The position numbers and the translations under genes are program-made. From Trypethelium eluteriae (Eukaryota), in NCBI GenBank assembly GCA_051942245.1, contig JAVECL010000028.1, forward strand, positions 1 through 64,000: a stretch of 64,000 nucleotides of DNA. The letters are read 5' to 3'. Position 1 is the stretch's first letter. Every line of letters starts with the position of its first letter. Positions 11,151 through 51,462 of this stretch are shown one piece after another. The notes under the pieces are model-generated. The model was given only the letters and a program-made list of their open reading frames with translations. It ran no database searches and was not told the DNA's origin.

Positions 11151-12658
11151 TCACGAATGGAACAAATCCCAAGCCTGAGCACAGAGCGACATGAATTCCT
11201 CCTTTTTCCTTCTTTGGGTGTCCGGGCTATCACGTCCTTCACCAAACGGGCCTACCCTTCTCTCCTGTCTGCCAAGGGGTGGACTACCATTATCTCTTTC
11301 ATACTCATCCCGAGTACGCCTTCGGGCACTCTCGCCAACTTTAGATCGGCCTTCGATTTGAGAATGACTATATCTGTCGTGGTCACGGTGCGTCTCGACG
11401 ATACGAGCGTGCGGTTTCGGTAGGTTGGCATCTCGAGATGCAGATGGCAAGGGCGAAGGCGGCGTTGGGGGTTGATGCCCACCATAGTGGACAATCCTTG
11501 GCAGAAGGTCTTCTCGCCCGCCAGTCATGCTCTGGACTGCTTCTTCGGCTGATTTGTATTCTCGCGGCCGTGATGTTGGAGGCTGCTGTGTTTGCTGACC
11601 AGGCGCTTGAGGTGGGAAGCCCGGTGAAGAGACGAGTGCAGGGCCTTGATTGGAGTGAGAAGAATGGCCAGGTGATGAGGTGGTGTGTGGATGTGCAGTG
11701 CGAGGCGCTGCGAGATTATCTCCGGCGAAGACGTCTGCAATTGGGGGGAGGCGATTATTTGTTTGATTGGCGGGAACGTGATGGATGTGTGAGGATGATG
11801 CAAGCGTGGAGTTCGGATTCGCTACATGACGGGAGTGAAGAGGATGGCCAGGTTTGCGCAGGCCGGTGAACGATTGATTGAGTGGTGCTGATTGAATGAC
11901 GCGCTCGTTCGCAAAGGCTGCATGGTGTGGAGCGTTGATCGAGAGCCCAGGCGGTGGACCTTTCCGTCGAGAAGTACCGGGCCCTTTGGAGTTGCTGAAT
12001 GACGGGTTCTTTCCCGAGGATGTCTCACCGTTGCTTTCTGGAGGAACCTTGCCGCCTTTCTGTCTGGCCTCGATAATCTGCCTCTGTTGTTCACGCACGT
12101 CGAGGCTGCGCTGCAACTGCTCGCGCATCGCTGGGTCCTGAGTTTGAAATCCCGGAGAAAGGCAGGCGATGCCGAGTTCATGTGTTCCGAGCCCTGCGCT
12201 CTCCTTTGACGAAGTCAACGGCGCCGATGGCCGTCCAGCGCGTGAAGCGTGAGGGTCGGCCATCCCCTTGGAGAGATCGAGGTTTTGCGGTCGACGACGA
12301 GGTGTTGCCAGCTCCGGTGAGGGCTCCTTCTTTACCTTGATGATTGGCGCCCCATTGCGGACACTGCAGCAATTTGTGTAAGTATGCGACATGCGTGCGA
12401 CCGCGGGTTCAATGGAGGGACGGCTTACTTTGTGGGCGAGAGCATCTCTTCGCGGGGGCTATTTCGTCTGGATTTCTCCGCGCTGGGTGGTGATGGTTGT
12501 GAGGCCATGCCTTGGGTCAGCCTCTCAGCCGAGCGGACACTCGACGGGGCGGAGGCGGCACTGGACGAAGAGGGTGCGATCGCAGTGTAGGACCGCGACG
12601 CTGGCATCGAAGAAGGTTCGAGCGAAGTGGCCGGTGCAGGGGCGACAGCAGTCGTCAT
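11151..12658 (-). CDS. Low-complexity protein of unknown function with conserved-looking short motifs
   Basis: Two exons separated by an intron at ~12365-12428 (GTAAGC..CAG). Motifs IACLSPGF, IQSAPLNQSFTG, REDLLPRIVHYGGHQPPTPPSP and a C-terminal helix KEEFMSLCAQAWDLFHS. Confidence 0.8.
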
Positions 12659-12983
12659 GATCTCCCCTTCGTCTTCTCCCTCGGCGGTTAGGCGGTCGCT
12701 TCAGCGTGCTGAGGAGAGGGTCCAGGTGCACGGCAGAATCGTTCGCCTGCGGCTCAATAAAGAGTCGCAGGAGTGCGGCGCTCGGCGCTACCGCGAAAAT
12801 AAATACACAGCGCAAGGGCCTGTTGTACCAAGGACTGGTTCGGTGGCACGCGACGAGGACGAGCAGCAAGCAAGAGGCACGAACAAGCCGGACTGGATGA
12901 GTGCAGATGGACGCAATGCAACGCCGTGGATGAAAGGGAGAGGGAGAGCGAGAGGGAGAGGAGGGACAGCCGGCGGCAAGTGG

Positions 12984-13026
12984 ACAGCAGCACCAGCACC
13001 AGCAACAGCAACAGCACCAGACAGCA
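12984..13026. repeat. CAG/CAC-rich microsatellite upstream of the unknown-function gene
   Basis: Imperfect (CAGCAC/CAGCAA)n run: cagcagcaccagcaccagcaacagcaacagcaccag. Confidence 0.6.
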
Positions 13027-15486
13027 AGGCAGGACAGTCGTGTGTGGCTCGCCGGGAGGGGGGCAGTTTTGAGGGCGGCGGCTGCGTGGCAGGAGAGAGT
13101 GAAGGGGTACGAGTGCAGGATGGGACACGGTAGTTATTTCTGGCAGGCCCGCAGAGGATGAGACAGCACAAAAGCGTCGGTGTGTACGGAACTATTGAAG
13201 CTGTCGACAACTGAACGGGACGGCCAGCTTCAGACGCAAACCATCAACCACGCCTCCCGCCCGCCTGGTCCATGGATAAGCTCGAAGGGGCAACTCGACC
13301 ATGCTGCATCCCTACCACCGCCTCCGACCCCTGCTGCTGGGGGGTGGAGCGCATGGATCATGGCCGATAGATACGGCAGCCCTGTGCAACTCACCCGCCC
13401 AGCAGCGAGCAGGACAGGGACGAGTCTGCGAGCATCACGGAGCACGCAGCCTACGCGCGAGACCCTGCCGTCGCCTTGATCGTTATGGGAGAGCGTGGCA
13501 GCGACCGTGTGCACGCGAATGAGACGGCCACAGGATGGTGGTGGTGATGGCGACGATGTTCAGCGCTGCCGGGCAAAGCAGCCAATGCATGGGCTCTGCG
13601 GTTTTGCTGTCGAATGGCGCGTTTCGCAGGCGCCCACCAATGGATGATGAATGGGTCCAGATCTGAGCACCAGCCGGCCCAGCATTGGTGCGTCATCTAC
13701 TATTGGCACTCAGCACGCTCGCCTGCACCAACATCATCCAACAGATTCCTTATTCTCCATTCCCCCTCTTTTCTCGAAGCCTGTCCAGGACACTGCTCCG
13801 AGACAACGCGCTTCTCCAACAGCAGCGGCAGCCTATCACCGCCCCGGCCACTTGGCAGCTCCGCCCTGCCAAGGGCTGATAAATCTGACACGCGCCGGTC
13901 GGCGGAAGGATGAGAAGAGGGGGGAAAAAAAAAAAGAGGGACCCAAGATTCAAAGACCCACGAACGACCTAAGAGGAGCGGGCACAAGGCGGGCCCGCAG
14001 TTTGAAACGCCCATTAAGCGAATCCACTGACACGCCAACCTAAAATCGCCCAGAGCCCAAGACCTCCTGCCCTTCGAACCACGACCGTCGCATCAGCATG
14101 CTTGACGACACAATTGCCGTTTGACCACAGGTAAGAGGGACGAATCAGCACAAGTCACGGGTCCGAGGCTTAATCAGCCTCAGCCGCCTACACGACCTTC
14201 ACCATTATATTCCTGACCGAGTGCGTTTCTCCAAATGGGCAAAGATGCAGGTCAGATGCCGGTCGAAGCAAGTCCAATCAACCTCTAACTATGTAGCAAA
14301 CGATGGCTTCGGAAGATCTATACGTACAGTACATCGCCAACTATTAGGGGTCCATCAATTGGTATAGACGACCGTAGCCCCGACCAGGTGGAATCCAGAT
14401 CATTACGTGGCGCAGAGTCGCCATCAGTGCTCCCGTCTGTTTCAAACGGACAGTCAGCAAGTGGCCCTTGATAACGGTAATAACCACCGGACCGCAGAGC
14501 TGATTTGTCCCTGCGTACTCCGTACAGTCCATTATCTACCCCAGCAAAAGACCGACCGTAGCTACATATTACCCTTCCTCCCTCATCCCACTTCATGCGT
14601 TGCTTCCGTGATTGAAAAACTATATCCTCTCACAGGACAACTCCTCTCCACGGTTCTTTACATTCGAGAGAAATCAAATACTGAAGTCAATCAAATCTCG
14701 CCAGAGGTTCAAGAACTTATTGCCTTTTGTACTGCTCACAAGTACCTTCCTGTGACTGCGCGAAGAGCGATTGGGAGAGGGGTCTTGTCGTTGAAACGAT
14801 GTTTCACCATAGCAATTGATTGATCCTCACTATTGCCCCTCCGCAATTCTGTGCATGAACCTTCAATCCCTAGAGCATGGATTGTAAATTTATTACATAC
14901 AGTACAATATGTATAAGCTTGTTCTTCCGAGTCAAGACAATCCGACGACACACTAGACATCGCACTAAAGATAAGTATTTCCCAATAGATGCGTGCGGAA
15001 AATCTATTCGGTGTTGCCCCTCGTAATCAATTTCCTTTTGTCTTGTGGCAGGCCTGGGAGCAAACCTTGAAACGCACATTTTCGTGTCAAGGGGCTTCGG
15101 GCATAGCTGGCTTGAGCTTACGAACCAGGTCCTGACACCTTATTCGATAAACTATGCTCGATGCCGGGGGTTCGCTTCAGTAAGCTTGCAAATCACTTCC
15201 CCTTGAACAGAATGCCAATCTTCCATCCCGGAGCAAATCAATTACTAGATTTAGTCGGCTACCTCAGTAACTTCCTTGGGTGGACACCATGGGCGCCCAG
15301 GCAGAAATCACACGCGAACTACCTCATCATGTTTTCAAGTCGTCCATAATCGAAATTCTCTACCTGTTTTCACGGAAGTCATGTTCGGGATATTATTGAG
15401 AGTCAGACGATTGAATTGCTTAGTTAAAAGGAAAAGAAAACCCCTCCAAAGATAGAACATCGCTGGTGCATTAGGTATGTAAATTG

Positions 15487-17112
15487 TCACGAGCTCGAAT
15501 AGCCAGCAAAACCCGTCCTCGAAAATCTTAGCATGTTCGAAAAGTAAACATAAGATGGTCTTTCCGAGCTTCTAGGATCCGTCACTCTTCCCTCCAAGTA
15601 ATTGTAAGTGGGACCAAGAGAATGTCGCTCTCGCTGCGAGTGTGCTGTACTAGAAAAGTTTGGTCTCCGCAAGTTTGGCATGGACTCCCTGTCCCTTCTC
15701 CCCCCAGAAGGAATCTGAAAGTCGTCATCTTCCTCTGCGTCCTTTTCTTGGTATCCCTCTAATCTGGGTATAGTAGTGCCCGTCTTCTCGTTCGTAACAT
15801 TATTTGACGGACTTTTACTTCCACCAAGATCGCTCTGTGGGCTGGTGGTGCTTACATCACTGGACGGTACGGCGTTTCCTTCATCAACAAATATGTCGGA
15901 TAATGGCTCCTCTTTGATGACACCATCATCTTCGGAACGCTGTTCTTCCTCCGTAGGTCCAAGTTTAGTAAGTGCGTCTTTGGATGTATTCGCCCGTTGG
16001 GTACATTCGTCTTCGCCAATGAAGTCACCTCCTCGCCTTTCGATGCACTCGTCGAGCGGTTTGTTCGTTCTGGTATCCTCTGTTTTCGCCGGAGTGACCG
16101 TAGCTTTCGTTTCATCCACTCCGCATTTGACGACATCGTTCCTGAAAACGGGAGTCTCACCGTTCGTTTCGTTGGAAGATGCTTCGGTGAGTTCGTCCTG
16201 GAAATACTCCTGTTGTGAGAAGGCCACAGTTCCATGTGCAAATAAGGGATCTCGCGATTCTGCCTCTTCCGCCGGAAGCTTTCCATTAACCACTGATCCA
16301 TCACTTTGATCCTTCGCAGCATTGGTTCTGGGAACGCGTGGAGCTGTTTCTGAGTTTTCCCCACGGGCATTTTCATGGACAGCGGCATTGTTGACAACCA
16401 TGTCCTTCACTACAATACTAGGAACGTCATGCGAAGTAGCTTTGTACGTGTGGTCCCTCACAAATTTCTCCGAAAGCGGCGGAAGTGCTTGCGGAATCGC
16501 CTTTCGTGGCATTAAAACCTCGCCATCCTCTGTCGACTTGAGGCCATCGTCCCTGGAATCAAGTCGTCCAATGTCGCTGTCCTGGAAATTTTCACTTTCC
16601 AAAGCATCTTCCCTCGACATATCCTCCGCCTGCGATATGTCGGGTTCCTCGGACAAACAACTCGCATGTTCTCCATTGACGTCGCGACCACTCAAGTCCG
16701 GAGCCTGGGATGACAGATGATCTGACTGTTCAAAGGAAGAGTGATGGGGAGACTTGGGATGGCTAGATCTTCCAAGGTCTGTGCCACCATCCATGACAGG
16801 TAGTGTTTGGACAACAGAGGGTGGCTGAAACATTTCCCTCCTTGGAAACAAAATTTGTGGACTTGTCGAATGTGGCTGCTCGGTTGGCGTCTCCGCTATT
16901 TTGTCGCACAACTCGCCATGTGATACGTCTTCACTGGCTTGCCCCGGTTGAAAGGCACACTTTTCCCCGCGGTCCGGTGTGGTGCATGCTCCAAGCTCGG
17001 TGGGCTGCTTTGATCGGCCCAACTCCAAACTTTGGTCGAATATGTCGACTCCTTTCCCCATGGGCTCATCCCCTTCAAGTACCTCCCCAGACGCGATGCC
17101 TTTGCAGAACCG
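15487..17112 (-). CDS. 541-codon acidic, disordered reading frame in frame with the upstream BTB gene (C-terminal extension or a separate gene from ATG 17061)
   Basis: The frame is open from the codon immediately after the BTB TGA (17115-17113) to the TGA at 15489-15487. It is rich in E/D/S/P/T and has no recognisable domain. Confidence 0.65.
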   Translation of the reverse strand, partial: RFCKGIASGEVLEGDEPMGKGVDIFDQSLELGRSKQPTELGACTTPDRGEKCAFQPGQASEDVSHGELCDKIAETPTEQPHSTSPQILFPRREMFQPPSVVQTLPVMDGGTDLGRSSHPKSPHHSSFEQSDHLSSQAPDLSGRDVNGEHASCLSEEPDISQAEDMSREDALESENFQDSDIGRLDSRDDGLKSTEDGEVLMPRKAIPQALPPLSEKFVRDHTYKATSHDVPSIVVKDMVVNNAAVHENARGENSETAPRVPRTNAAKDQSDGSVVNGKLPAEEAESRDPLFAHGTVAFSQQEYFQDELTEASSNETNGETPVFRNDVVKCGVDETKATVTPAKTEDTRTNKPLDECIERRGGDFIGEDECTQRANTSKDALTKLGPTEEEQRSEDDGVIKEEPLSDIFVDEGNAVPSSDVSTTSPQSDLGGSKSPSNNVTNEKTGTTIPRLEGYQEKDAEEDDDFQIPSGGRRDRESMPNLRRPNFSSTAHSQRERHSLGPTYNYLEGRVTDPRSSERPSYVYFSNMLRFSRTGFAGYSSS

Positions 17113-32915: not shown

Positions 32916-33340
32916 GATTATCTGGACTGGAGTCTGGATTTTGGCGCATGGTCAGCGTCCGTTTTACACAGTATGTCTCGTAGGTTAAGCCTTGCTCAAT
33001 CGGCAAGAAAGTAGCTTTTTGCAATCATTGAAGGGCAGGATTAACTTACAGAGGCCCCGTCTGTTCTGGTCACACCTGAGGATCAGCAAGATACGATGGT
33101 GCCACAGAACTGAGACCCTCTTAGTAACTAGGTATGATAGCAAGTTACATTCTAAACAACTTTCGAGTATGGTAAAACTCGAGAGCACATGCCCAATTTA
33201 CATAGTACCTAGGTAGGCATGTTATACTTATGGCCATACTAGTCCAGTGCTATTTCGCTGATCCTTTTTCGCCACCATTCTCGCAATTCTTTCTCTCGTT
33301 CTGCTCTTCAGAAGAGAACTAAGTTCCCCCATCGCCTTGT

Positions 33341-33962
33341 CTACTTCTCCCTCAAAACCTCTTTTATCCCTTCACTTACCGCGCCCTCGGCCTTTCTCAC
33401 CCCCTGCCTTGCCTTCTCTTCCAAAACCTTCTCTCTACCACCAAAATTCCAATAATTTAGATACCGATATCCTTGAGTACATTGCGCGGAGAAATTGACA
33501 ATGTGGCAGCCGAAAAGGAGGTAGTTCCTAGGCGTGACGGCCATAGCATAGCGCATAAAGACAGCGGAGTAGCCGACGAGGGCCATGGTCATTGTGCCAG
33601 AGATACTATGATGAAGTATTAGCGAGAGTTAGTGAGAGTGGGAATCGACCAGGTTGCGACTATTCTGGAAGCTTGGGAAGATTGGTGGCAGAAAGTAGAG
33701 ACGAACGCATGTGTAAGAGACGATTTACATTTCGGGGTCTTTCTGAGTGTCTAATACTGCTGCGATGGGAATACCAAAGTTTGAGGCTGGCCCCCAGAAA
33801 TCTGAAACTCGATTAGTTGTGCAGTCACTGCGTTCGACTCATTCAATCGTCGTATGCCTGTGAACGATGTGGATTGGAGGAAGACTCACGCGTTGAGCAG
33901 AGGTAATCGGTTACTGGGTTGGCTCGTATCCGCGTATTGAGCGCTTTGATTGCAGCGGCCAT
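33341..33962 (-). CDS. MPC1: Mitochondrial pyruvate carrier subunit 1
   Basis: Spliced translation [83 protein letters not shown]. Confidence 0.93.
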
Positions 33963-34365
33963 ACTGAAGGAAATGGATTGCGCGCACAGAATGGAGAGGA
34001 TGTACGAGGAGCGTAGAGGAAAAGGCGTCGTTTAGCAGAAGGCCGCTGAGGTTGCGGTTGAGGTGTGCAGGCCCCGGATTTCGGAGCTTGGAGGGCGCAA
34101 AGTTAGCCCAGCATACGACGCCGCGGACGCGAGGTCGGCGAACAGGGCGGCGGTCTACCGGGGCAAATATAATACGTATTAGAAACGCATATATATCACG
34201 CATGAACATGGAGGATTCTATGTTCTAAGCCTCGTGTATTTACGTTGACTTAAGACAGTTCAGTCAGGCATCTCTGAGTTCTGATTGCCAAAATGGTACA
34301 TGGATTTCTGCTGTTTACAGTCTACTGCCTCGTACTCGAGAAGTTGAATTTATTGCTTCATAATT

Positions 34366-34742
34366 CTACAGTTTTCGAGCGCGATCTAAGGTGCCAACAG
34401 CATCACAGAACCACTCGCCTTCGGTCATCTGCAAGCCCCTAGTGGAGAGGTACTCTGCTGAAGCGATGATTCCAATGAACGGGGTTACGAGCTCAAGGAA
34501 TTTAGACAGGTCGGCGTTATCTTTACCCTGCTGATCGCGAATCTTGGAGTAGACTTTGGCAAGGACGGTCCATCTGGCTTGGAAGTGGTTCCCCTGCCAC
34601 AGTACGGTGAGGAGAAGTGAGATAGCTTTCTGTCGAAAGTCCAAGAAGATGGGGGACTAGTAGACTTGAAGAAAATTAGTATCACTGGTGCCTGAATTGC
34701 AAAGGACAAACATACCGTGAAACGCTATGTAGGTTGTCAGTA
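34366..34742 (-). pseudogene. MAT1-1-1: Truncated MAT1-1-1 (alpha-box) relic
   Basis: Spliced over a 51-nt phase-1 intron (34665-34715, GTATGT..CTAAT..AAG) it reads LTTYIAFHVY*SPIFLDFRQKAISLLLTVLWQGNHFQARWTVLAKVYSKIRDQQGKDNADLSKFLELVTPFIGII. This matches the alpha-box pattern LNSFIAFRSYYSPIF..QK..S..L..LW..F.AKW.ILAKAYS.IRD. There is an in-frame TAG at 34657-34659 and no start or N-terminal region. Confidence 0.85.
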
Positions 34743-34754
34743 TGGCTAGACATG

Positions 34755-35705
34755 CTATCTGTTGCCACCAAAACCTCCTGGAGGAAAACCACGCCCTTGA
34801 CCAGGTGGCTGGAATCCGGCAGGTTGGAAGCCTGCTAGTATTGGATTAGTACCAAGGTCGAATGGTTAGAGTTCCGGAACTTACTTGCTCCCGGAGGTGG
34901 CGGTCCTCCTGGAAAACCTTGGGTTGGTGGAGGAAATCCAGCTACACACAGTATCAGTGTCATGTTATACTGCTCGTAGGCATATGGGGATACTGACGAG
35001 CTCCACCTGGTGGCCCACCTCTTCCTAAGCCACCTGCTCCAGGGAAATTTCCACCTGGAGGGAATTGACCTGGAAATCCAGGCCCACCGACGCCGGCAGC
35101 TGGACCAGTCAAACCGCCAGGCAAGCCTCTACCTGCTGGTCTACTGATCCCGGTTCCAGCCGCCATCGTTACTGGTGCTCCTGTGGCCCCACCTGGGGCG
35201 CTGGTGCCTAATCTCGCTGAGGGATCACTTGGAGGTGGACCATCGACTGAGCAAGAGACAATGTGGGTACCGCGAACGATGGTGAGACCCAGCGTACGCT
35301 TCTCTTCACTTTCAACTAGAGTAGGTGGCGCCTGCCCGGGTGCTTGTTGTGCTTTGGTCGGCTTGCGTTTGACACGTCTGAATTCTTCCGTATCTGCTAG
35401 GACAAGGTTCATGTGCTTGTGAGATGTCAGTGCTATATGGAGAGATTCTACGACTGGGTTACGATGACTATACCTTATCAAACGCAAGCATCTGGCCGGT
35501 CATCTGGCGTCCGTCTGTAAGAGTGATGCGCATGCGATAATTGATCTGAAGTGAGGTTAGAGTAAATCATGCATGCAGAACAAAACGATTACTCACTAGG
35601 TTTGTCTAAAATGAGCGAAGTCAGCTGGGCCTGTCAACGCAAAGCTTTCCTCGTGAAAAAGAATGCGGTGTCGCCTACCATCTTGCCAGTTTTATTTTGC
35701 GCCAT
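34755..35705 (-). CDS. SMB1: Small nuclear ribonucleoprotein SmB
   Basis: MAQNKTGKM-TNL-INYRMRITLTDGRQMTGQMLAFDK-HMNLVLADTEEFRRVK...EEKRTLGLTIVRG, followed by a Gly/Pro-rich tail ending GFGGNR*. Six exons, including a 9-nt microexon at 35597-35605. Confidence 0.95.
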
Positions 35706-36008
35706 GGCTTAAAGACCGCGCCCAAAGGCGTCTTTCCGAGTTCTAAAAGAGCAGGTTTATACTGAGGATACGTAGAAGTTTGGAAGTCCAAACGGAAGGA
35801 GATAAGTTGAAGATCAAAGTGAGTGGTGTGATATTGTGGTCGCGGTCTTTGCGAGCAATCTTCGAAGCTTTGGACTTCTGAAGTTCACAATGGTCTGTGC
35901 TCAAGCAGCTTCCGAGGTTCATCCATCTGCACACAAACCTACATTTTGACTGCGCACCGCGAACTATTGACGCACCAAGATTCCCACCCCCTTCATCAGG
36001 TATCCGAA

Positions 36009-36766
36009 ATGGTACGCAGCATTCTCATGACGTCTTCTGGCTAGACTGACGGCAATAATAAGGCAAAAGGTCAGAGCTCCACGCAACAGGCTACAGAAGA
36101 GCTGAGGGGCAGCGGCGGCAAGGACAAGAGCAGCAATCCCATGCGCGAGCTCCGCATCCAGAAACTTGTACTCAACATCTCCGTTGGTGAATCTGGCGAC
36201 AGACTCACACGAGCGGCAAAAGTGCTCGAGCAATTGAGCGGCCAAACACCTGTCTATAGTATGATTGAATCTGCACATCTATCAGTTCTCCTGTTTCCAC
36301 TTCCTCTGACAAGGTCTCCTGAATAGGCAAAGCTCGCTACACCGTCCGAACGTTCGGTATCCGTCGTAATGAGAAAATCGCAGTGCACGTCACCGTCCGT
36401 GGACCCAAGGCTGAGGAAATTCTTGAGCGTGGATTAAAAGTCAAGGAATACGAGTTGAAGCGACGCAACTTCTCCGAGACTGGTAACTTTGGGTTCGGAA
36501 TCAGTGAGCACATTGATCTGGGTATTAAATATGATCCTGCCATTGGTATCTATGGTATGGATTTCTACTGTTGCATGTGAGTAGTTTGAATGCCCCCTCA
36601 AGTGGCTGGCATCGGTGGAGGTTAACTTCGGCTTTGTAGGACCCGTCCAGGAGAGCGCGTTGCAAAGCGTAGACGTTGCAAGAGCAAGGTCGGCCACTCA
36701 CATAAGATCGACCAAAGTGAGACAATCAAATGGTACAAGAACAGGTTTGAGGGTATTGTCCGATGA
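36009..36766 (+). CDS. RPL11: 60S ribosomal protein L11 (uL5)
   Basis: [67 protein letters not shown]...GIYGMDFY. The first exon is the ATG alone; three introns. Confidence 0.97.
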
Positions 36767-37831
36767 ACGTAGGATGAGGTTATGGTAACAGCCACGAGTT
36801 CCTAGTATGCAAGATTACTGGCGTTCTATGGTAGCTCTGGAGGCATTCTTGTATCTACACCTGACCAACACAGGGCCTATCAATGGAGCATATTTCATGC
36901 CAAGCAAGATCATTACGATGGAGGTTTCACAAGGGTGATGACCGCATAACCATCGATCACTGCTTGCAGCCACCAGGTTAAGGTGCTTCGGCGTCCATTA
37001 CTGACTGAGTAGCCTTACAGATTATTCACTGCCAGAACACGGTAGGTCGTGCAGATTGTTGTCGTTGCATCTCATTTTTCCGCCCGAAATATTTGAATGC
37101 CACACTCCAGAGCAGTGATCGTAATGAATTCACATCGAGAACGAGCTCGATTCTCGGCATGCATATCTCGGCATGCGACCTTCTACGGGTCGCAGAAAAG
37201 AAGCATCCTCCAAGAAGTGAACGTCAAGCCTCAGGAGCTCCATGTGCACAGTTCAGTGTGCCGATAAGAACGCACGTACTTTTCACTCACTGGAAATCTT
37301 GTCGTATGTACTGTTCTGGTACATTATGTGAGCAGATCCTACGTCAACATCTTGGTAAAGTACATGGAGAGCATTTTGCTAGGTGCCGCCTTCGAGCCAG
37401 AAGATATTAAGTCTGGCGACTTAATTGTCAATCCGGTTTTTGTAGATGCGGGACTCCTTCAAAAAAGGGTTTAGATTCATTACCTTTTGAGTAAGTATTG
37501 AAAGGACCAGGAAGAGAAGAAAAGATACATATGATAAGAAAAGCGAGTCTATAGAAAAGGCTAGCGCCATCCTTACTCTGCCTATTCTAAGCTAGGTGAT
37601 ACCTAGCAAATAGATACCCAGGGTTCCGTCTCTTGATTGCTACCTTGTTCTTCCGTATACTCCGTACCACATTACCTAGGAGGCAGGTACTACCTAACTG
37701 TTGGTGCGAACCTCACACGCTAGCGCACGTGTTGTCGGATCACGGGTCAATTCGCCTGATATTTCGTCACAACCCTCGAGATTGCTTAGACGCGATACCT
37801 ACCTACCTAGAAACTTCTAAATTATGCTATC

Positions 37832-40540: not shown

Positions 40541-41451
40541 AGTGGTATATTTCATGCAAAAGTCTAAACGTTCTCGTTTTGGAATAGATACCCATGGAGC
40601 ATTTTGACAGTTGAATGCATCATAATTCAATACAATAAAAGCTTGCAAAATTTCATCGGGAGGCGCAAAGCTTGCTATGGTGCTGTTACGTTGCGAGAAT
40701 CATGGATGGCGCACGCCGTGGTCACCAATGTTCAAGGCAGGTGCTTATGCGTCGTGGTGCCCATTGCAAAGGAAAGCAAGAGCCAAACTCTACTTTTCCA
40801 CGGCAAGAGGCAAGCACTAGCAGAAGCACACTCCTCACAAATGAGCTAGCGCGCCCTACGTTTCTGTTGTTTCCTTTCGTGATCACTGTCATCACTCCTG
40901 GTACTTTCACTTACGCATCCCCAATCAACTACTTTTGCTTCAACCAGTCCTAATTTATGCCCTCTCTGGAGGAGCCAGTCAGGTCTCCTCTTTGCTTGAG
41001 CTGGTCTCCTCTGTATCCCCTTCATCTATTTACCTATCCTGAAGCTCAACCTAAGTAAGGCATCAATAGCTTGATTCAAGCGACTCCTCATCTCTTACCG
41101 AGCCAGGGGACTTCTCGTCTGATCCATTGATATTCAAGTCACGCCACGAGTTTCGAGATTGTCCTTTATCCTGGGGTCGCCGGCCTACACCTTCAAGCGC
41201 GACGTGTCCTTCCTGCGGCCCCTAGGACCGTCGAAGGGTCAGATTCAGCCGAGGAGGTAGACTTGGGAGAGAGGTTGAACTGTCAAGCAATCCCCTCCCG
41301 AACAGCGTATACATATTTGTCCTTGCGCGCTGAGGGAGAGACAAGCATATCTAGAGGTAAGTCTCAGTCCAAGACTTTCCGAACCGATGTCTCTCGCTAA
41401 TTGTTTTGAACCCAAGGGTCCGCGACCTCTATAATCCGACACCTGACATCC

Positions 41452-44400
41452 ATGTCAATGGCTGGATTCGGCATAAGTGGCGGAAATGTTGGCTCTAGCC
41501 AGCATATCAATACGGCCCAAGCTGAAATGGAAAAGGTGACTAGCACTTCTTGGTGGAGAACTCGAGCTCAAGTCGAAGGCGATGACCAATTGCAGAAGCA
41601 AAGCGCGAAGTCTTTGTCCTTCAAAGCCTCGAGACTTCGTTCCAAGCTGAGGTGGATGTATACAAAATGCGGGAAAGTCTCGTTTCGACGTGTACTGGCC
41701 TCTCTCTTTCACTCATCGGATAGCACTCCAACGAGTCCCGGACCACTGAAGGTCACACCAGTACGAACAGCTTCTGAATCACTCCTTAGACCATCTACGG
41801 GCCTGACTCCGTCTATGAGCGTTGACATCCTCTTTCCGCCGGTCTTCACATTCAGTGGCCCTGTCCTACAACCTTCAAGTACCAAGGCGACTCCCTCTAC
41901 AAGCAGAGCCAGCACAAATCCCTATCCAAGGCCACAAAAGAACCATACGCACTGGGACTGCCTCACCGAAGACTTTCCAACTTTAGGGAGCCCGGATGGC
42001 TCTAACGACAAAAGCCATGAAATCATCTTCGAACCCTTTCATGATCCTCTGTCTCGTAGTCTTTCAGAAACTGCTCCGTCGTCTGAAGGATCGTTAGATA
42101 ATCATGGAGTTTTGCAATCACTTGAGCAATCTTCCGACTCAAGGTCAGAGCCACGACATTTTCTTGCACAACAAGCTGATATCTACAGATCAGCTGGACG
42201 TTCGTATAATCACACTCGCCTGGCTTCTGAGTCTTCAGAAGTATACCTCTCTCCTGAGGATAACTCTTCCAAACGATTGTCATTGCTTGAGCCCGATGAT
42301 CCTTGTCCCACAAGAGCATCGTGGCTTCCGCTCGAGCTTCTCCATCAAATATTCTACTACCTACACCCTGTGGATTTCAATGCTGCTCGACATATCTGTC
42401 AGCGTTGGATGCTCGCAAGCTTGGATTGTCGTGTCCTTTGCACGATGATCAGAAGAGCCGGTTGGTCTTCATTGGTGAGGAACCTACCCACCGACGAGGG
42501 TGATGATCTTGGTGACGTTAGTCTCGAGTTGAGACTAAGTGGTGATCTCGCGAGATCGTGTGCTCTAGGGCCAAATTGGACAGGCTCTGGCGTTCACTTC
42601 TATTATGAAGGATCGACGCAGCTAATCCAACCATATCCACCGAAATGTGCATTGATGGAGACTTGCGATGTGGATTTTACTGGACTCTCATCTGGTGCTC
42701 AAGAGACTACTCGAAACAGAGCTAGCGGTCTCATTTTCACCGTTAGCGCCTGTGGTCGCTTTCTTATGGTGGGAGAGAACAACATGATTTATGTCTATCA
42801 GCTGGGTCCCGGACACGACATTGATCTTGTGGTACGTATTGCATGCCCTCGGCGAGTCCTCGGAGTTAGTATGGACACCACTTGCGGTCGGTACGCAGTC
42901 GCTGCCTTCCTTGACGGCAGATTAGGAATGGTGTGCGATCTCCAACTATACAGATCAAGTACGTCGAACACTCCCGAAGAGATATGTGATGATTTCTCGA
43001 GACATGGTGCTCATTGTCCGATCCCCCACGATAGAGATAGCAGTGAGGAGAGTTTACGGGGCAACAATAGCCGAAGCAGCTCACCTCTGGCTCTTATCAG
43101 TGCAGAAGATTCTTCGGCTCGCAAACGGACTATCAGCGTTGCCGCTAATGAGATACCACCGACTGAGAACCAGGAGATATATCAGGTGACAGCACAGCGA
43201 AAAGGAAAGACGGAGTTTCAATCAGATACCTCTAGAAGATCATACAGATCCTCACATCAACCGGTTTGTCCTACTCTGATGCCGAACAAGCGAACAATCT
43301 ATGAAGATCTCTGTTATCCTGATGACCCTCCACGCACGGTTGCGATCTGTCCGTCTCGAAGCTGTGCAGCTTTTGGATGCAATGCTGGTATCCAGCTTCA
43401 TTGGATTGACGTTGTTACGAAGAGACAAGAAGACCGCTTTTTCCCTCTCTCAGCAACAACGGACGTCCTTTACTTTCTACCCCCACGGATCGGCGCTGAC
43501 GCTACTCCAAGTGTCACAGCTGGTGTTACTGACCTTCAATCGGACCCACAAGCTCGGAGGTTGCGTCTCATTGGTAGCGCTGTTGCGCCTCATCCGGACA
43601 CAGTGTTAGGGAGGACGGAGCTACGTAGACGTATGTTTGGTGCCACTGATATGCGCTTCGGATGTCAACCAAAGCACCGCAGAGACGGACAATGTCTATT
43701 CTCTAATCGAGAGTCATCTAGCGACAACAGTATATCTAATCAAAAGCAATTCCACGAGCGGCTACAGCAAGACTGGTCACTGGCTGAACTCGAAGGCTCT
43801 GTCAAACAAAAAATCCGCGGTGGATCTCACTCATTCCGTCATCATCACATATCTGATCATGATGTCTCGATTGCAGACTTGTGGCAAAAGTGGGCTTCAC
43901 GCCGTAGACAAGACAAAAAATCGTTTACGCCAGACTTTGATCATTATCGAGCGATATCTCTCAGTGACGGATATCATATTCTGTTCACCGACCCACCGAC
44001 TGGTTTGCTATGCCTGGGCTGTGACGCACCATTCGAAAGGCCAATGAAGCTGACAAGAAAAATGATTCTCGAGCCGCCATTTTCGCAAGGTAGAATGGCA
44101 AGTATGGAGCAGATCTGGCAGAAAAGCAAAGAATCTAAAATGGACAAAGGCAAAGGTAGAAAGAAAAGGACTTCCACCTCAGAACTGCTCACCCGTTCTG
44201 AGGACGAAGGTAGCATTGGACACAACTCCCGTGACGACAATGATGTTGTATTGTTTCCTACGGTCTATGCAGCAGGGACGAATCTTCAGAATGGTGTCTT
44301 CATTGTTGCAGGTTACGAAGAGGACCTTGTGCTCTACACCATTCCTCCTGATATTTTTGCCGTCAGCCAAAAAGAGCTACAACCTACACAAGGCAGCCAC

Positions 44401-45684
44401 AACGAAGCTGGAGGCAATTGGCTTTACGAGTCCGTTGATTCAGATTCATCTGCTTCTCAACCTGCTGCAGCCAAGAGTCCGTCGCATCTAAGAACGGGAA
44501 ATTTGTCTGAGAACGAAAATGACATGGAATGGCAGGAGTACTGGCCTGATACAGTTTCCTGGTCAATGGCCGCCACATTCGCCGGTGTGAACAGAGCTGA
44601 TCCTAGAAGTGCTCCTGATGGACCCGGCTTTTTCAACAGTCCACCCTTGACGAGGCCCACAAAACCTGGCATCTGGCCAGTAAAGATACGAGGGACATGG
44701 TTGGGTAAGGTGCCCACGCTCGTTGATATTGCTGTCCGCAATGAGAACAGTGAGCTAGCTGTTTGGGCATTTGGAGCCAACGGCCACGCATACGCCTTTG
44801 AAATTGATAGCGTTAGGGTCGAGCGGGACGGGCACGTCCGTTTGAAGCGCAAGCTAGCTTTGCGAACGGGAGAGATCAGGGAAGTAGACCGTGAAAAAAT
44901 GCCTTGGCATGTTCGCCAAAGCGACGTTGCAGATTCCGCCGGCTTTGATGGATGCTCTACTGATATTTTGACGTGGCTGCGGAAAACTGGCAGGACTACC
45001 ACGCAGAGGTCTAGCCCCACTCTAGGACGGTCCTGTGAACAGCTCGAGGACTCAGACAGTCCGGAAGATGCCTGCCTATCTCGAGGATATCGCATTGAGG
45101 CCACGGACCTTACAGGCAACACTTCGAGTAGGGCAAGATCGGCTTCAATGTCTACGCTTGTCCCCGGATCCTCAGCCTCAAACGACGTCTCAGAGCAATC
45201 TTATCCGATTCGCCCCGACCACTTTCAATGCTCTCGCTCGCCCAGAACCTCAAGGGGTGCGTCCTCTGAATTCCCTAGAATTGAAGCAGCAAGCAGCGGT
45301 TCCCATATTCTCCCCTCGCACCTCCATCAACTCCCCTTCTCACTCCACCCAGCCCACCCACAGCCACCTCCTCCTATCTCCATCGACTCACTGACCCGAA
45401 GTACTGCCCAAAATTCGCCTCTCCTCTCCAACACGCACTCTGTCCGCCGTGCCTATCCGCGTGCCTGGCGCTCGACCGACCTCGACGAAGTCCCCTACGA
45501 CTTCCTATCAAGCTATCACCATCAATACTCGCGCGGGCGCCTTGCTAGCTTCCGTCCCGATACTCCACCGGCCTGTGCCCTCAATCCCCATAATCCATTC
45601 GCGACTCCAGGGACCGTGGGAACTGGATTCAGGTCCACGTCGGTGCGTTTGAATCAGCCGGATGATGAGGAGGAGCGGAAGTAA
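41452..45684 (+). CDS. Large F-box protein with a probable beta-propeller region
   Basis: F-box LPLELLHQIFYYLHPVDFNAARHICQRW, followed by beta-rich blocks (FTVSACGRFLMV, CPRRVLGVSMDT, PPRTVAICPSRSCAAFGC, LSDGYHILFTDP..GLLCLG). The start codon is uncertain. Confidence 0.8.
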   Translation: MSMAGFGISGGNVGSSQHINTAQAEMEKVTSTSWWRTRAQVEGDDQLQKQSAKSLSFKASRLRSKLRWMYTKCGKVSFRRVLASLFHSSDSTPTSPGPLKVTPVRTASESLLRPSTGLTPSMSVDILFPPVFTFSGPVLQPSSTKATPSTSRASTNPYPRPQKNHTHWDCLTEDFPTLGSPDGSNDKSHEIIFEPFHDPLSRSLSETAPSSEGSLDNHGVLQSLEQSSDSRSEPRHFLAQQADIYRSAGRSYNHTRLASESSEVYLSPEDNSSKRLSLLEPDDPCPTRASWLPLELLHQIFYYLHPVDFNAARHICQRWMLASLDCRVLCTMIRRAGWSSLVRNLPTDEGDDLGDVSLELRLSGDLARSCALGPNWTGSGVHFYYEGSTQLIQPYPPKCALMETCDVDFTGLSSGAQETTRNRASGLIFTVSACGRFLMVGENNMIYVYQLGPGHDIDLVVRIACPRRVLGVSMDTTCGRYAVAAFLDGRLGMVCDLQLYRSSTSNTPEEICDDFSRHGAHCPIPHDRDSSEESLRGNNSRSSSPLALISAEDSSARKRTISVAANEIPPTENQEIYQVTAQRKGKTEFQSDTSRRSYRSSHQPVCPTLMPNKRTIYEDLCYPDDPPRTVAICPSRSCAAFGCNAGIQLHWIDVVTKRQEDRFFPLSATTDVLYFLPPRIGADATPSVTAGVTDLQSDPQARRLRLIGSAVAPHPDTVLGRTELRRRMFGATDMRFGCQPKHRRDGQCLFSNRESSSDNSISNQKQFHERLQQDWSLAELEGSVKQKIRGGSHSFRHHHISDHDVSIADLWQKWASRRRQDKKSFTPDFDHYRAISLSDGYHILFTDPPTGLLCLGCDAPFERPMKLTRKMILEPPFSQGRMASMEQIWQKSKESKMDKGKGRKKRTSTSELLTRSEDEGSIGHNSRDDNDVVLFPTVYAAGTNLQNGVFIVAGYEEDLVLYTIPPDIFAVSQKELQPTQGSHNEAGGNWLYESVDSDSSASQPAAAKSPSHLRTGNLSENENDMEWQEYWPDTVSWSMAATFAGVNRADPRSAPDGPGFFNSPPLTRPTKPGIWPVKIRGTWLGKVPTLVDIAVRNENSELAVWAFGANGHAYAFEIDSVRVERDGHVRLKRKLALRTGEIREVDREKMPWHVRQSDVADSAGFDGCSTDILTWLRKTGRTTTQRSSPTLGRSCEQLEDSDSPEDACLSRGYRIEATDLTGNTSSRARSASMSTLVPGSSASNDVSEQSYPIRPDHFQCSRSPRTSRGASSEFPRIEAASSGSHILPSHLHQLPFSLHPAHPQPPPPISIDSLTRSTAQNSPLLSNTHSVRRAYPRAWRSTDLDEVPYDFLSSYHHQYSRGRLASFRPDTPPACALNPHNPFATPGTVGTGFRSTSVRLNQPDDEEERK

Positions 45685-46964: not shown

Positions 46965-49054
46965 CTACATGACCGCACAGATCCCTTCACTAGTCGCAAC
47001 TACCTTCCTTGGCGGCTCTCGCATTCGTTGTCCTCCATAACCAGGCCCACTCGTTGCCATCAGAAACTCAAGTTCTTTTCCCCCTTTTCCCGATTTCCGA
47101 CCAGCACCTGCCATCCATGACATCATTGGCGTGACCTTTTTTTCCTTCTTGAGCCCCTTTACGGCGCCCGATTCCGGGACTACACCGGGACCCATCATCA
47201 GTCCATCAAGCGCTGATGGTCCGGCGGGACCAGGTCCCATTGGTGGCGGGGGTGGAGCCGGCGGTACAAATTTGTCCTTGCCTTTTTTGCTCTTGTTCTT
47301 TTTATGGGGTGCGGGCCCAACGTCCATAGCTAAAATGTCCGGTGGTAGCGCGCCTGGGGGCATCGCATTTGGGTCATGTTTGGGCTTTTCTTCTTCCATC
47401 GGCCATAGGTGCATCGTGATATTCCAATCGGGTTGGACGACGGTCTCCCAAACTTGCGGGAGGATAATTTCACCATTCGGGCCCATCAGATCGTAATGCC
47501 GCTCCTGCACATGATAGCCAATGATGTCGACATGTTCAAACGCTTGACAGATAAGTTCTTCCATACCCTATTCATACTATCAGCCCTTGTCCAGACGACG
47601 GTGGTTTGGCTATAATGCTATAACGACGAAAGAAGCAAACCATACCTTCCAGGTCTTGCAAAGGTGGAAAGGAAAAGAGAACTTCCTTCCCACCGCGTCC
47701 TTGAACTTAATTGGTTTTTCCTCCTTTGGTGCCGTGGCCGCTTCCAAATCCTTTTTTGCCTGCTCTGCATCTTTTGCGGCCTCCTCAGTAGCTTTTTTGG
47801 CCTCTTCCAATGCTTTATCGGCCTCCTCTTTCGTCTTCTTCGCTTCCTCTTCAGCTTTTGTCTCAGCTTCCTTTCTCGCATTCGATGCAGCTGCCTCCAA
47901 CGCTGCAGCAGCCTCTTCCGCCTTCTTCTTTGCCTCAGCTTGTGCTTGTTCCTTTGCGCGAACTTCTTCTTCGCGCTTGATGCGGTCTTCCTCCATCTTT
48001 TGGAGCAGTTCCTTCAGCTCTTTATACTCTGAATCATCTTTCTTCTCTGGAGGAGGGGGTGGTGGTGGCGGTGGTGGGGCAGCGGCAGGTGCGGGTGCAG
48101 CTGCAGTGACAGGAACTTGTGCAGCTTTAGGCGGGGAGGGTGTGTGGCGGGGAGGAGGGTATGGATGCCATTGGGGTGGCATTTGTGGAATGTATTGTGG
48201 ATATGGCACCATGTCCATATCCTGTGGGTAGACAGAGTACATGGAGTGACGATGAGGGGGATGTGGACGGCCGTAGGCACGCTCGCGTGGTGGTGGTGGT
48301 GGGGCATAGGGGGCATCATAAAACGCGCCAGGACCTGTAGATAGGGATGAGGCAACGCCAGAGAAAGGGTGATTACTTGGGGCAAAAGGATTACCTCCAT
48401 AGCCGTATGGATCTTGCGCAGAAGTTAGGAGACGTGGCTCAGGCGGGACCATGAATGGGTTCTCGAGGGGACTAGGATATCTGCCGAAAGACATGGCGCT
48501 TGCTGCAGTCGATGGGAGATGCGCAACGTTTTGCCACTCGGGCGAAGGATGATGAGATGGATACGGCGCTCGTGGGGGAGGCCCAGGTGCATAATCGTCC
48601 GGGTAACCGAAAGCCTCTGGATCCGGCGGCGAGTTATGCGGGCGAGGCGGTGGATGGGGAGCAGGCGCTGGTCGATGTGGGATGGATGTGTGGTGACGAG
48701 GGGGTGCACGTTGAGAATGTCGTCGTCGTGGCGGATGAGGGTGGTCGACGTGGGGCAAGTTTTGGCTTGAATGCCTTGGTGAGGTTCGCGGTCGCGAGGC
48801 AGAGTCCGAAGGTTCGATTTCGTCTACAAAGTCATAGTCCCCTCCGACCGAATCTGAGTCGCGGCTACCCGACGAAATGTGGATACCAGTATCCTCTGAC
48901 TCCTCCTCCTCTGATGCGGAAGCAGCGCGCTCCGAACCAGTCGTTTGACGGACGGTTATTCGCGTTCTTCTGTTGCCCGCGAGGTCAGCATGCTGAGCCT
49001 TCGTCCCATGACGTGATGGAGGGGAACAGCGACTGAGGAATGTACTTACGACAT
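46965..49054 (-). CDS. Pro-rich/coiled-coil protein with a fungal ubiquitin-like domain and C-terminal CaaX motif
   Basis: A 5-nt first exon (ATGTC|GTAAGT), with introns at 48970-49049 and ~47568-47645. Domain KPIKFKDAVGRKFSFPFHLCKTWKGMEELICQAF...HYDLMGPNGEIILPQVWETVVQPDWNITMHLWP; the protein ends GICAVM*. Confidence 0.8.
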
Positions 49055-51462
49055 CAAGGAAGCCCAAACCAAGGAATTATCCCACTAAGGCCCGTTCTGC
49101 TAAGAAGCAGGCCTAGTGAAGATAACCTCGTAGCAGTGCCAGCGTGAAGATGGCCGTGTCTTTCTCCAAAATCTGTCGCACCTCGAGTGTGGGTAATGGG
49201 TAAGGTGTGGATTGTGTTGGGCAGCGGTTGCTGCGGGAGCCGGTCGCTTAGCTGAGGAGGGGAGAACCGGATCGCTGGGTCAACACCGCAACGAAGTCTC
49301 CACGCCTGAGATCTCAATGCGAATGCAATGGAGAAATGTGCGGTCAGTGGATCGGGCTCAAAAATGAAAATCTTTAGGGAAAGACAGATGGCGCGTGGAT
49401 GAGAACAAGGTTGGAAGTTCGCTGGATCTAGCCCTGTTTCGAGCTGAGGCGGCCAGAAACAGCCGACGTCAGGCTTCCAGAAGAAAAAAAAAAACGATGC
49501 AAGGCCCGAAGTCGCAGATCAGCTAGACGCAGACGCCAGATGCGACGAGCAACAAGCAAGAAGACGTTTCCGACTCGCGCGAAGAGGCTTGCAATTGGGA
49601 GAGAAAGCGATGGCACAGGGCTTGTTTGGGTACGGTCGAATTGGAATGAGGGGCCGGCGCGGAGCAGAGGGAAACGGAGAGGGCCGCCGTCTTATGCGCT
49701 GGCACACGCCCACACTGCTGACGATAAAACCGCACGAGGAGGGGTAGGAGCCGATAGGGTAGGATTGGCGATGCAATGGATGTGGATGCCTGGAGATCCC
49801 TCCCCGACGGCTTGGCCTTTACGGATGATATCGTCCAGTAGTGACGGGACCGGGACCTAGATCGATGAGGGGGTAGATCAATCCGCGCGTTTAGCTCGAG
49901 ATGAATCAGCGGGAAACTACCTGAGCGAGCGGTCGAGATCAATAGTCAGGCCGAGATTTTTTTAGCTAACAGCAATTTGGGCTGCCATATCCGGACATTA
50001 GGCGTTGATATTACTTTTCAGGACTGGGATCCGTGGTGCAGCGAGATTTAGGCAACGCCTAAGTAATGACAGATGATGAGTTTGGAAAGCAGGAAGCAAG
50101 AGAATGGTGGTCTTGTAAGTAGCGACGCGATGGGAACAGAGTAACTTGCATTCCGGCCAAGAACGACCAGTGGCAATCGTTCTAGACACGATCATACGTG
50201 TGAGCATGCTGCAAGGCAAGACCCGCCTCTCATATTCTAGTCTATAGATCCACGAGCCTGGTAACAATCACCCCATAGGCTTCTCCTCGGCTTGCTAGCA
50301 GATGCAGGATACTCGGTCAATGGCTATCCTCTCCCGTGGCGCTCGGCACACGCGATCGAAAAGGAAAAAGAGACTACCTCTCCATCCATTCGGCGACTCC
50401 ACGTCGACGGGAAAGTGGCAAAACTGCTGTGGTACTCGAAACATGACCGATTGATGCAATCATCGTACACTAGAATGCCGCTTACAGTGGATCCTGCCTT
50501 TGACTGGTTCCAAATCTGCCAAATCACAAACGTTGAATACAAGGCAGACGCTGCAAGAGCGGATGCAGCTTCGACCGCCAATAAAACCACCGGTCCCACC
50601 TTCATTGCATCTGTTGAGCCTCAATTCTTGGCCGTGGTATTCCTGCGTGGGCAGCTTTTTCTTGAACCGGCATTGCTTGGGAGTGCGGTTGGGCCGCTGC
50701 TGGTCCCCTCGACTATTGCCGTACAAGCCCAATAGTATGGGACTGATGACTTCCAAGGAGGCGGTGAGGAAGAGCTACTGGCGCTATCCACGTGTCTTGG
50801 GATCCTGAAAACTTCCAAGTTCCTAAGGTAAGATACAACCCAACTACGCGGGAACTTCCTCTAGCGTTGGGCGTTGATGGATTACTCGTGGCCTTTGACG
50901 CATGGGTCCATAGGAAAACGAACCTGAGATCAAAAGTAGTGTTGTAGACAGTAGGAAATACTAGGCAGACTATGGTTTCTCTACGAGACGAGACCAACAG
51001 AAGTATGGTAGCATCGAAAGAAGAGCACCGCAGGATGGGAAGTCGATTTTTCTATCATGTTCCCAGTATCATTATGTTACAAGAGAATCCCCGGCTGCGC
51101 TGTGTCCCTGGTAATTCAGGGCTGAGTCGGTCAAGAGGCCATCCTAGAATGTGGAGGACAGCCAAATCCTCGCTTGCAGAATATGCCTCCCAATGACAAA
51201 GCGTGGTGAGAGGATCTTGCCTCATCACTTTTCTTCAGACGCCCACCCAATGCGATTATGCACGACACATTCGTGATCCTCCCCCTGCCGAAACCACTTG
51301 AACAAAGAAGAAATTCCTCGAGCCAAACGACTCACATGTATGATGCACGCAAGCCATCGTATAAACCGCAGGATGCACGAGCGATTATGGAAGCGCACTC
51401 CTTGCATGGAGAGAGAAGAAAACCAGGGTCATGAGAAGGGCAGCAAGACTGCAGAGTACTCG

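Follow-up and report, generated by a model that had tools for sequence, protein, structure and literature searches.

In the fungus Trypethelium eluteriae, part of the mating-type gene MAT1-1-1 lies immediately behind the stop codon of the gene for snRNP-associated protein B (SmB), and the question raised by this locus is how such a sequence came to be there and whether it still has a role. An earlier note, made from the DNA letters, described the element as an ectopic alpha-box relic and suggested that it might mark a relocated or broken ancestral MAT locus, a heterothallism/homothallism transition or a silent second MAT copy. Analysis of the whole 64-kb stretch of DNA to which the locus belongs (hereafter the window) confirmed this observation and supported its interpretation in part: with a probability of roughly three in four, the element is a real, old, ectopic and unprocessed pseudogene fragment of MAT1-1-1.

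The locus is made up of the following features, listed from SmB to the next gene on the same strand with the SmB intron and the candidate poly(A) signal in place:

34755..35681, minus strand: SmB gene (snRNP-associated protein B), with its ATG at 35681-35679 and its TAG stop codon at 34757-34755; LSM domain PF01423, tblastn of P0002
34884-34835, minus strand: last intron of SmB, phase 1
34716..34740, minus strand: relic, tail of MAT1-1-1 exon 1; 8 codons (LTTYIAFH) and the first base of a split codon
34665..34715, minus strand: relic intron; 51 nt, phase 1, with a GTATGT donor, a TACTAAT branch-like site and an AAG acceptor
34414..34664, minus strand: relic, first 83 codons of MAT1-1-1 exon 2 (alpha-box core); PF04769 match, tblastn of P0003
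34366..34413, minus strand: non-MAT tail of the relic open frame, WFCDAVGTLDRARKL followed by a stop codon; can be aligned to the T. subeluteriae model
34349..34354, minus strand: weak candidate poly(A) signal of SmB (AATAAA), the first after the SmB stop and 3' of the whole relic
33341..33962, minus strand: MPC1 (mitochondrial pyruvate carrier), the next same-strand gene; PF03650, start and stop checked

On the minus strand, 14 nt separate the SmB stop codon from the beginning of the relic, in agreement with the distance of about 15 bp first given. The stretch derived from MAT1-1-1 measures 327 nt with its intron (34740-34414) and thus occupies 327 of the 792 nt that separate the SmB stop from the MPC1 ATG. 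Both of its breakpoints are located inside exons, the 3' one at 34414/34413 and the 5' one somewhere in 34741-34754. AATAAA is no commoner in the window than chance predicts (17 copies against 23.8 expected), and a search of Rfam with 33000-36800 returned no match. The last intron of SmB is closed by a tandem TAG/CAG acceptor (NAGNAG; 34831-34840, minus strand), through which two SmB isoforms differing by one residue are possible.

The identity of the relic is established by its match to the MAT alpha1 profile: PF04769 (MATalpha_HMGbox) recognizes the exon-2 open reading frame with 72.2 bits (E 4.6e-20), far above the cut-off of 28.1. Only profile positions 58-136 of 194 are covered, however, and the whole domain in an intact frame with a start codon is not present. 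The relic lacks about 85 N-terminal residues, among them most of helix 1 and with it the initial third of the alpha-box, as well as about 170 C-terminal residues, i.e. the whole C-terminal half; the absence of the N-terminus and of a start codon, noticed at the outset, is thus real, with no in-frame ATG before residue 79 of the relic frame. Exon 2 opens with tc-TAC-TAG-TCC, whose TAG (34659-34657) stands, as had been reported, where the parental gene encodes Tyr. The frame beyond this codon is indeed open, for 96 codons rather than the 97 originally counted, up to a stop at 34368-34366. Upstream of the intron, LTTYIAFH aligns with LNSYMAFR of the MAT1-1-1 of the same genome with a BLOSUM62 score of 23, a value that only 3 of the 96,296 8-mers without stops reach when all six frames of the window are read, one of them being the relic site itself; because such a score is so rare, the exon-1 codons can also be regarded as homologous to MAT1-1-1.

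Related proteins were collected first by means of a word index covering about 5.8 billion proteins; this search was limited to longer ones and yielded five hits from 141 candidates. Two of these combine PF04769 with an LSM domain: P0001, a T. eluteriae model of 244 aa that is 100% identical to the relic and located on a 91-kb contig, and P0002, a T. subeluteriae model of 282 aa that is 89% identical to it. The other three are P0003, the intact MAT1-1-1 of T. eluteriae (345 aa, PF04769 only, 83% identical), which is encoded on a separate 17-kb contig; P0004, a full-length MAT1-1-1 from an ENA record; and P0005, a protein of Bathelium mastoideum. A near-length search added P0006, a partial MAT alpha 1 of Viridothelium virens (138 aa), and P0007, an alpha-box fragment of 69 aa from an ENA record. 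MAT1-1-1 is carried by both T. eluteriae data sets, the assembly and the DNA run X1 described below; no full-length MAT1-1-1 from T. subeluteriae is found among the five hits listed, which is only a hint that the fragment may occur in both mating types. Over its 83 exon-2 codons, the relic shares 81.9% amino acid and 93% DNA identity with P0003. A phmmer search of 1.84 billion representatives gave 446 hits at E ≤1e-3 and, since none of those outside the group just described exceeds 55% identity, the relic is best regarded as a copy of a Trypetheliaceae MAT1-1-1. No relatives were found in JGI metagenome contigs using the relic and an alignment as queries. P0006 is an exact substring of P0003 (138/138 residues) despite their different species labels, Viridothelium virens and Trypethelium eluteriae, suggesting that either the taxa are very close or one label is off.

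When P0003, P0004, P0005 and P0002 were compared with the window by tblastn, a single piece of MAT1-1-1 was detected. Residues 89-174 of P0003 align to 34671-34414 (E 1.5e-41), and the alignment of P0004, an intron-retaining model, begins at 34740. P0004 keeps a 54-nt intron at the position of the relic intron, and in run X1 the true MAT1-1-1 has its acceptor where relic exon 2 begins; these two observations bear out the earlier proposal that the intron sits at the position typical of MAT1-1-1. Because the intron is kept in its ancestral position and phase, the fragment must have been copied as DNA. The intron itself is not alignable at 85% with the parental one, its splice signals being textbook nonetheless. 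A processed (retro-copied) pseudogene was considered and ruled out on account of the 51-nt intron retained at the ancestral position.

The arrangement of the locus recurs in run X1, which holds 91% of the sampled words, differs from the window at 7 listed positions in 3.4 kb (33300-36700) and, judging from these differences, apparently represents another individual, independent of the window. Over this region the X1 contigs fall into two sets of similar depth, whose assignment to loci is the analyst's reading of the contig table. In the first set, record 1 (26,960 nt) matches 33300-34542 without differences, tying the relic to MPC1, and record 3 matches 34523-35055, tying it to SmB. In the second, the matches are confined to 34414-34542 (record 2, 7 differences) and 34523-34663 (record 4, 10 differences), beyond which both contigs are unlike the window. 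The true-gene contig departs from the relic at 34663/34664 with ...TAG/C, while a loose end of 30 letters before 34414, translated by hand, reads NGPTLHRETI as in P0003; moreover, introducing the 17 X1 differences into the relic produces a translation identical to P0003 residues 94-174. Since the two record sets carry one copy each, the relic and the true MAT1-1-1 both exist. Polymorphism between X1 and the window is uneven, with 0 differences over 33300-34542 and 7 listed over 34621-35611, which includes SmB and its 3' end.

These contigs also bear on the misassembly considered in the earlier note and, specifically, on a chimera in which an alpha-box was joined to SmB through a shared repeat. 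Such a wrong join would be mechanically possible, as the relic and the true gene share exact words and the X1 contigs break at 34523-34542; nevertheless, it is extremely improbable, for the X1 contigs with the relic variants run into MPC1 on one side and SmB on the other, both halves of the relic carry residues shared with the independent T. subeluteriae model that is joined to SmB, and the other pairing of the halves translates exactly to P0003.

The age of the copy can be read from T. subeluteriae, where the fragment is likewise attached to SmB in model P0002, collinear and gap-free over 34662-34381. The relics of the two species are 91.6% identical over the 83 MAT-derived codons. They have in common eight derived residues (P16L, position 20 to V, D25N, I33V, A37V, P68S, M75R and W77L) at positions that are ancestral in three functional MAT1-1-1 proteins. 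The T. eluteriae relic alone shows four further changes and the TAG, and that of T. subeluteriae two changes and a His at the TAG codon, which is Tyr in the parents. Because both the fragment and the eight derived residues are shared, these sequences indicate that the copy was made once, before the split of T. eluteriae and T. subeluteriae.

Phylogeny, one of the checks proposed at the beginning together with dN/dS, is in line with this picture. The tree, computed from an alignment of 29 rows by 83 columns, groups the two relics together (100/99) with a stem length of 0.13; their sister is the T. eluteriae MAT1-1-1 (92/81), whose branch measures 0.034, and all three lie inside a Trypetheliaceae clade (100/98). 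By branch length, the relics have changed about five times as much as the parent at the protein level. The 69-aa fragment P0007, which has the same 3' break (after ...EGE) as the Trypethelium relics, groups with full-length P0004 (94/92) and not with them; to judge from shared residues, P0004 may come from P0007's own lineage. AU tests of a single origin against independent origins of the three fragments do not separate the two (p 0.20 and 0.12), one clade for all three not being rejected (p 0.20). P0007 is itself degenerate: its sequence runs off register for about 16 residues after 'DH', resumes at VYSKIRD and ends right after ...EGE.

The genomic surroundings of the relic are not those of a mating-type locus. 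The canonical MAT1 locus of Pezizomycotina is flanked by APN2, SLA2, COX13 or APC5. A Pfam scan was made of 199 stop-to-stop open reading frames across the 64 kb (all 198 of at least 90 aa plus one of 85 aa). PF04769 was found in the relic frame only, and none of the 199 frames matched an HMG box, an APN2-type nuclease, SLA2, COX6A or APC5, so that the site carries no canonical MAT1 flank among the frames scanned, as the earlier note had stated for APN2, SLA2 and COX13. The flank-free span extends for about 34 kb on one side of the relic and 29 kb on the other. The genes identified by Pfam encode instead an Rpb2-type subunit, NIF phosphatase, RRP36, BTB, CRT10, CAP, DUF255, an RF-1 domain, MCM7, MPC1, SmB, RPL11, RSN1/PHM7, an F-box protein, ULD_2, SET1, MFS, a Zn-cluster factor and tannase; the neighbours SmB, RPL11, MPC1 and MCM7 had all been named correctly. 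Elsewhere in the window, three long open frames have no Pfam match or only a weak F-box (11154-12458 and 15490-17112 on the minus strand, 41410-45681 on the plus strand; 435, 541 and 1424 aa), the GC content of 12001-14000 is high (0.61), and the GC skew is strong over 48001-50000 (0.245).

These surroundings make it very unlikely that the fragment marks a former MAT locus, left by relocation or breakage, or an idiomorph-border remnant whose flanks lie just outside the window. Idiomorph-border MAT remnants are described as common in Dothideomycetes in the part of a Phyllosticta preprint that was available (bioRxiv 10.1101/2020.04.14.040725), and the contigs of the relic and of MAT1-1-1 are unplaced relative to each other. 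Against this, the element comprises only 327 nt of one gene, wedged between tightly packed housekeeping genes, with breakpoints inside exons and some 34 kb and 29 kb around it without APN2, SLA2, COX13, APC5 or an HMG gene; furthermore, its place in the tree, among the Trypetheliaceae MAT1-1-1 sequences and sister to that of T. eluteriae, suggests a late copy rather than an old locus. The suggestion of a relocated or broken ancestral MAT locus is accordingly not upheld, and neither is that of a heterothallism/homothallism transition, given so minimal a relic and an intact MAT1-1-1 of 345 aa on another contig: the fragment says nothing about where the MAT locus lies or about any switch in breeding system.

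A third suggestion, a silent second MAT copy, is at odds with the truncation of the relic, the intact gene elsewhere and the way in which the fragment has evolved. Compared with its parent in the X1 paralog contigs, the relic differs at 17 of 250 nt. A count by codon (81 codons; S 54.7, N 188.3) gives an Nd of 14.5 and an Sd of 1.5, so that dN is 0.081, dS 0.028 and their ratio 2.9, a value not significantly greater than 1 (Fisher p 0.13-0.37). These figures show no protein-level constraint on the relic and are the reverse of what purifying selection would leave; the relic has also changed at residues invariant in the functional proteins (P16L, M75R and W77L). Repeat-induced point mutation (RIP) was ruled out as the cause of the divergence, as many of the changes are A-to-G or transversions and not mainly C-to-T/G-to-A.

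Two features of this divergence sit badly with a plainly neutral relic. With a constrained parent and a neutral relic, dN/dS would be expected to fall below 1, with about four or more synonymous differences; neutral simulations gave a mean of 3.7-4.6 synonymous differences of 16, as against the 1.5 seen, and put the probability of at most one such difference at 0.03-0.09 and of at most two at 0.11-0.26. From one species to the other, the relic differs at 7 of 83 residues in its alpha-box part but at 5 of 12 in the non-MAT tail (Fisher p 0.007), although three of the five tail changes are in adjacent codons and may be a single event. In both species the relic retains about 96 open codons and has no indels. 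The synonymous deficit and the contrast between box and tail, both drawn from small samples, are unexplained, and could be hints of gene conversion or of some constraint.

Gene conversion would mean that the fragment exchanges sequence with the true MAT1-1-1 in concerted evolution, its exons staying similar while intron and flanks diverge. This is possible but doubtful, and it overlaps with the pseudogene reading rather than excluding it, for the relic would still be a non-coding remnant. It would fit an exon-2 part 93% identical to the parent next to an intron unalignable at ≥85%, the 1.5 synonymous differences and the better conservation of the box than of the tail between species, as well as the grouping of P0007, with its same ...EGE end, with P0004 rather than with the Trypethelium relics. 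However, the eight relic-specific residues common to both species have not been erased and the relics cluster together (100/99); conversion removes synonymous and non-synonymous differences alike and so cannot yield dN greater than dS; and the placement of P0007 is weak evidence, considering the AU p of 0.20 for one clade of the three fragments.

Constraint of another kind would be expected if SmB had recruited the relic, either as an alternative final exon, producing a fusion protein, or as a regulatory spliced intron in its 3' UTR, and the relic were under selection there. The donor of the last SmB intron (34885/34884) and the relic acceptor (34665/34664) are both of phase 1, so that their joining keeps the alpha-box frame; the splice signals of the relic are intact, its box is better conserved than its tail, and T. 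subeluteriae P0002 is precisely such an in-frame fusion, with 96 open codons. Yet in T. eluteriae the same join meets the TAG after two codons, and P0001 gets to the alpha-box only through wrong-frame pieces of the Gly/Pro-rich tail of SmB, using the AG of the TAG as acceptor. With, in addition, a dN/dS of 2.9 relative to the parent, substitutions at the invariant positions 16, 75 and 77, the first third of the domain missing and both fusions being computational models, such a takeover appears quite unlikely. The SmB-alpha-box fusions of P0001 and P0002 (34366-35681, minus strand) are instead likely to be prediction artefacts, which arise because the relic frame is open; in the case of P0002, a predictor could build an in-frame fusion because donor and acceptor share phase 1.

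The pseudogene reading thus accounts best for the locus. About 327 bp of genomic MAT1-1-1 DNA, running from the eighth-last codon of exon 1 through the alpha-box intron to codon 83 of exon 2, would have been copied into the interval between SmB and MPC1, 14 nt past the SmB stop, in an ancestor of T. eluteriae and T. subeluteriae. The likeliest route would be ectopic repair or non-homologous insertion, because no repeats or target-site duplication are visible, a search for them around the relic having returned only short chance-like matches. The fragment would then have drifted without selection on the encoded protein, while the true MAT1-1-1 presumably works elsewhere in the genome. Its present role is most likely none and, judging by where it lies, it is probably a passive part of the SmB 3' UTR. 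A broader alternative, in which the fragment is a conserved, spliceable 3' module of SmB kept similar to MAT1-1-1 by conversion or selection, is unlikely as well; it might take the form of an alternative terminal exon, as in the open T. subeluteriae version, or of a MAT sequence partner present in both mating types, and if this were true, a lineage of lichen fungi would have its mating-type system connected to a core spliceosome gene.

In practice, the pseudogene fragment is useful chiefly as a warning of erroneous gene models and mistaken mating-type calls. At least two public models (P0001 and P0002) fuse SmB to an alpha-box, and a naive domain search would count two MAT1-1-1 genes; such models could show a 'MAT' gene in a MAT1-2 genome and thereby mislead mating-type calls and the inference of homothallism in lichen metagenomes. 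The relic has, in addition, persisted across a species split, and can serve as a small natural marker, useful in dating and in tests of gene conversion with the MAT locus. As judged by titles and the beginnings of abstracts, no earlier report on this subject was found for Trypethelium.

Among the known systems close to the relic is functional MAT1-1-1 itself, with P0003 as its closest representative: the relic has the same intron position and phase together with the sequence identity given above, and differs by the missing ATG, the in-frame TAG and an amino acid branch about five times longer. A partial and probably non-functional MAT copy retained as DNA is also known from the MAT1-1-8 remnant in MAT1-2 strains of Phyllosticta and Botryosphaeriales (bioRxiv 10.1101/2020.04.14.040725). 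In the part of that preprint available, these remnants lie in or beside the MAT locus of the opposite mating type, on the APN2 side; truncated MAT genes are reported inside the MAT loci of Phyllosticta, and fragments sought elsewhere in the genome were not found. The relic described here lies instead in the SmB-MPC1 interval; no MAT flank was found among the frames scanned in the 64 kb, and an intact MAT1-1-1 is present in the genome besides it.

A close parallel is offered by Cercospora beticola, every isolate of which is stated, in the portion of PMC7368123 available, to carry exon fragments of MAT1-1-1 and MAT1-2-1 at ostensibly random loci; the source cited there is Bolton et al. 2014 (Fungal Genet Biol 62:43), whose title refers to homogenisation by concerted evolution. 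As far as this portion goes, in both cases a Dothideomycete has a short MAT piece at a seemingly arbitrary site outside MAT1, besides an intact MAT gene in another place, and there are hints of exchange with the parent gene. They differ in that here there is one fragment, of MAT1-1-1 only, with no HMG fragment in the window. The copy, furthermore, spans an intron and ends inside exon 2 instead of being exon-bounded, its high-identity part starting at the exon-2 boundary (34663) and the 8 exon-1 codons and the intron being also present. The relics of the two species are closer to each other than to the parent, indicating no full homogenisation, and the host is a lichen-forming fungus of the Trypetheliales. 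By analogy, then, the relic is of the dispersed-fragment kind known from Cercospora, and such fragments seem to be present in a distant, lichenised order of Dothideomycetes.
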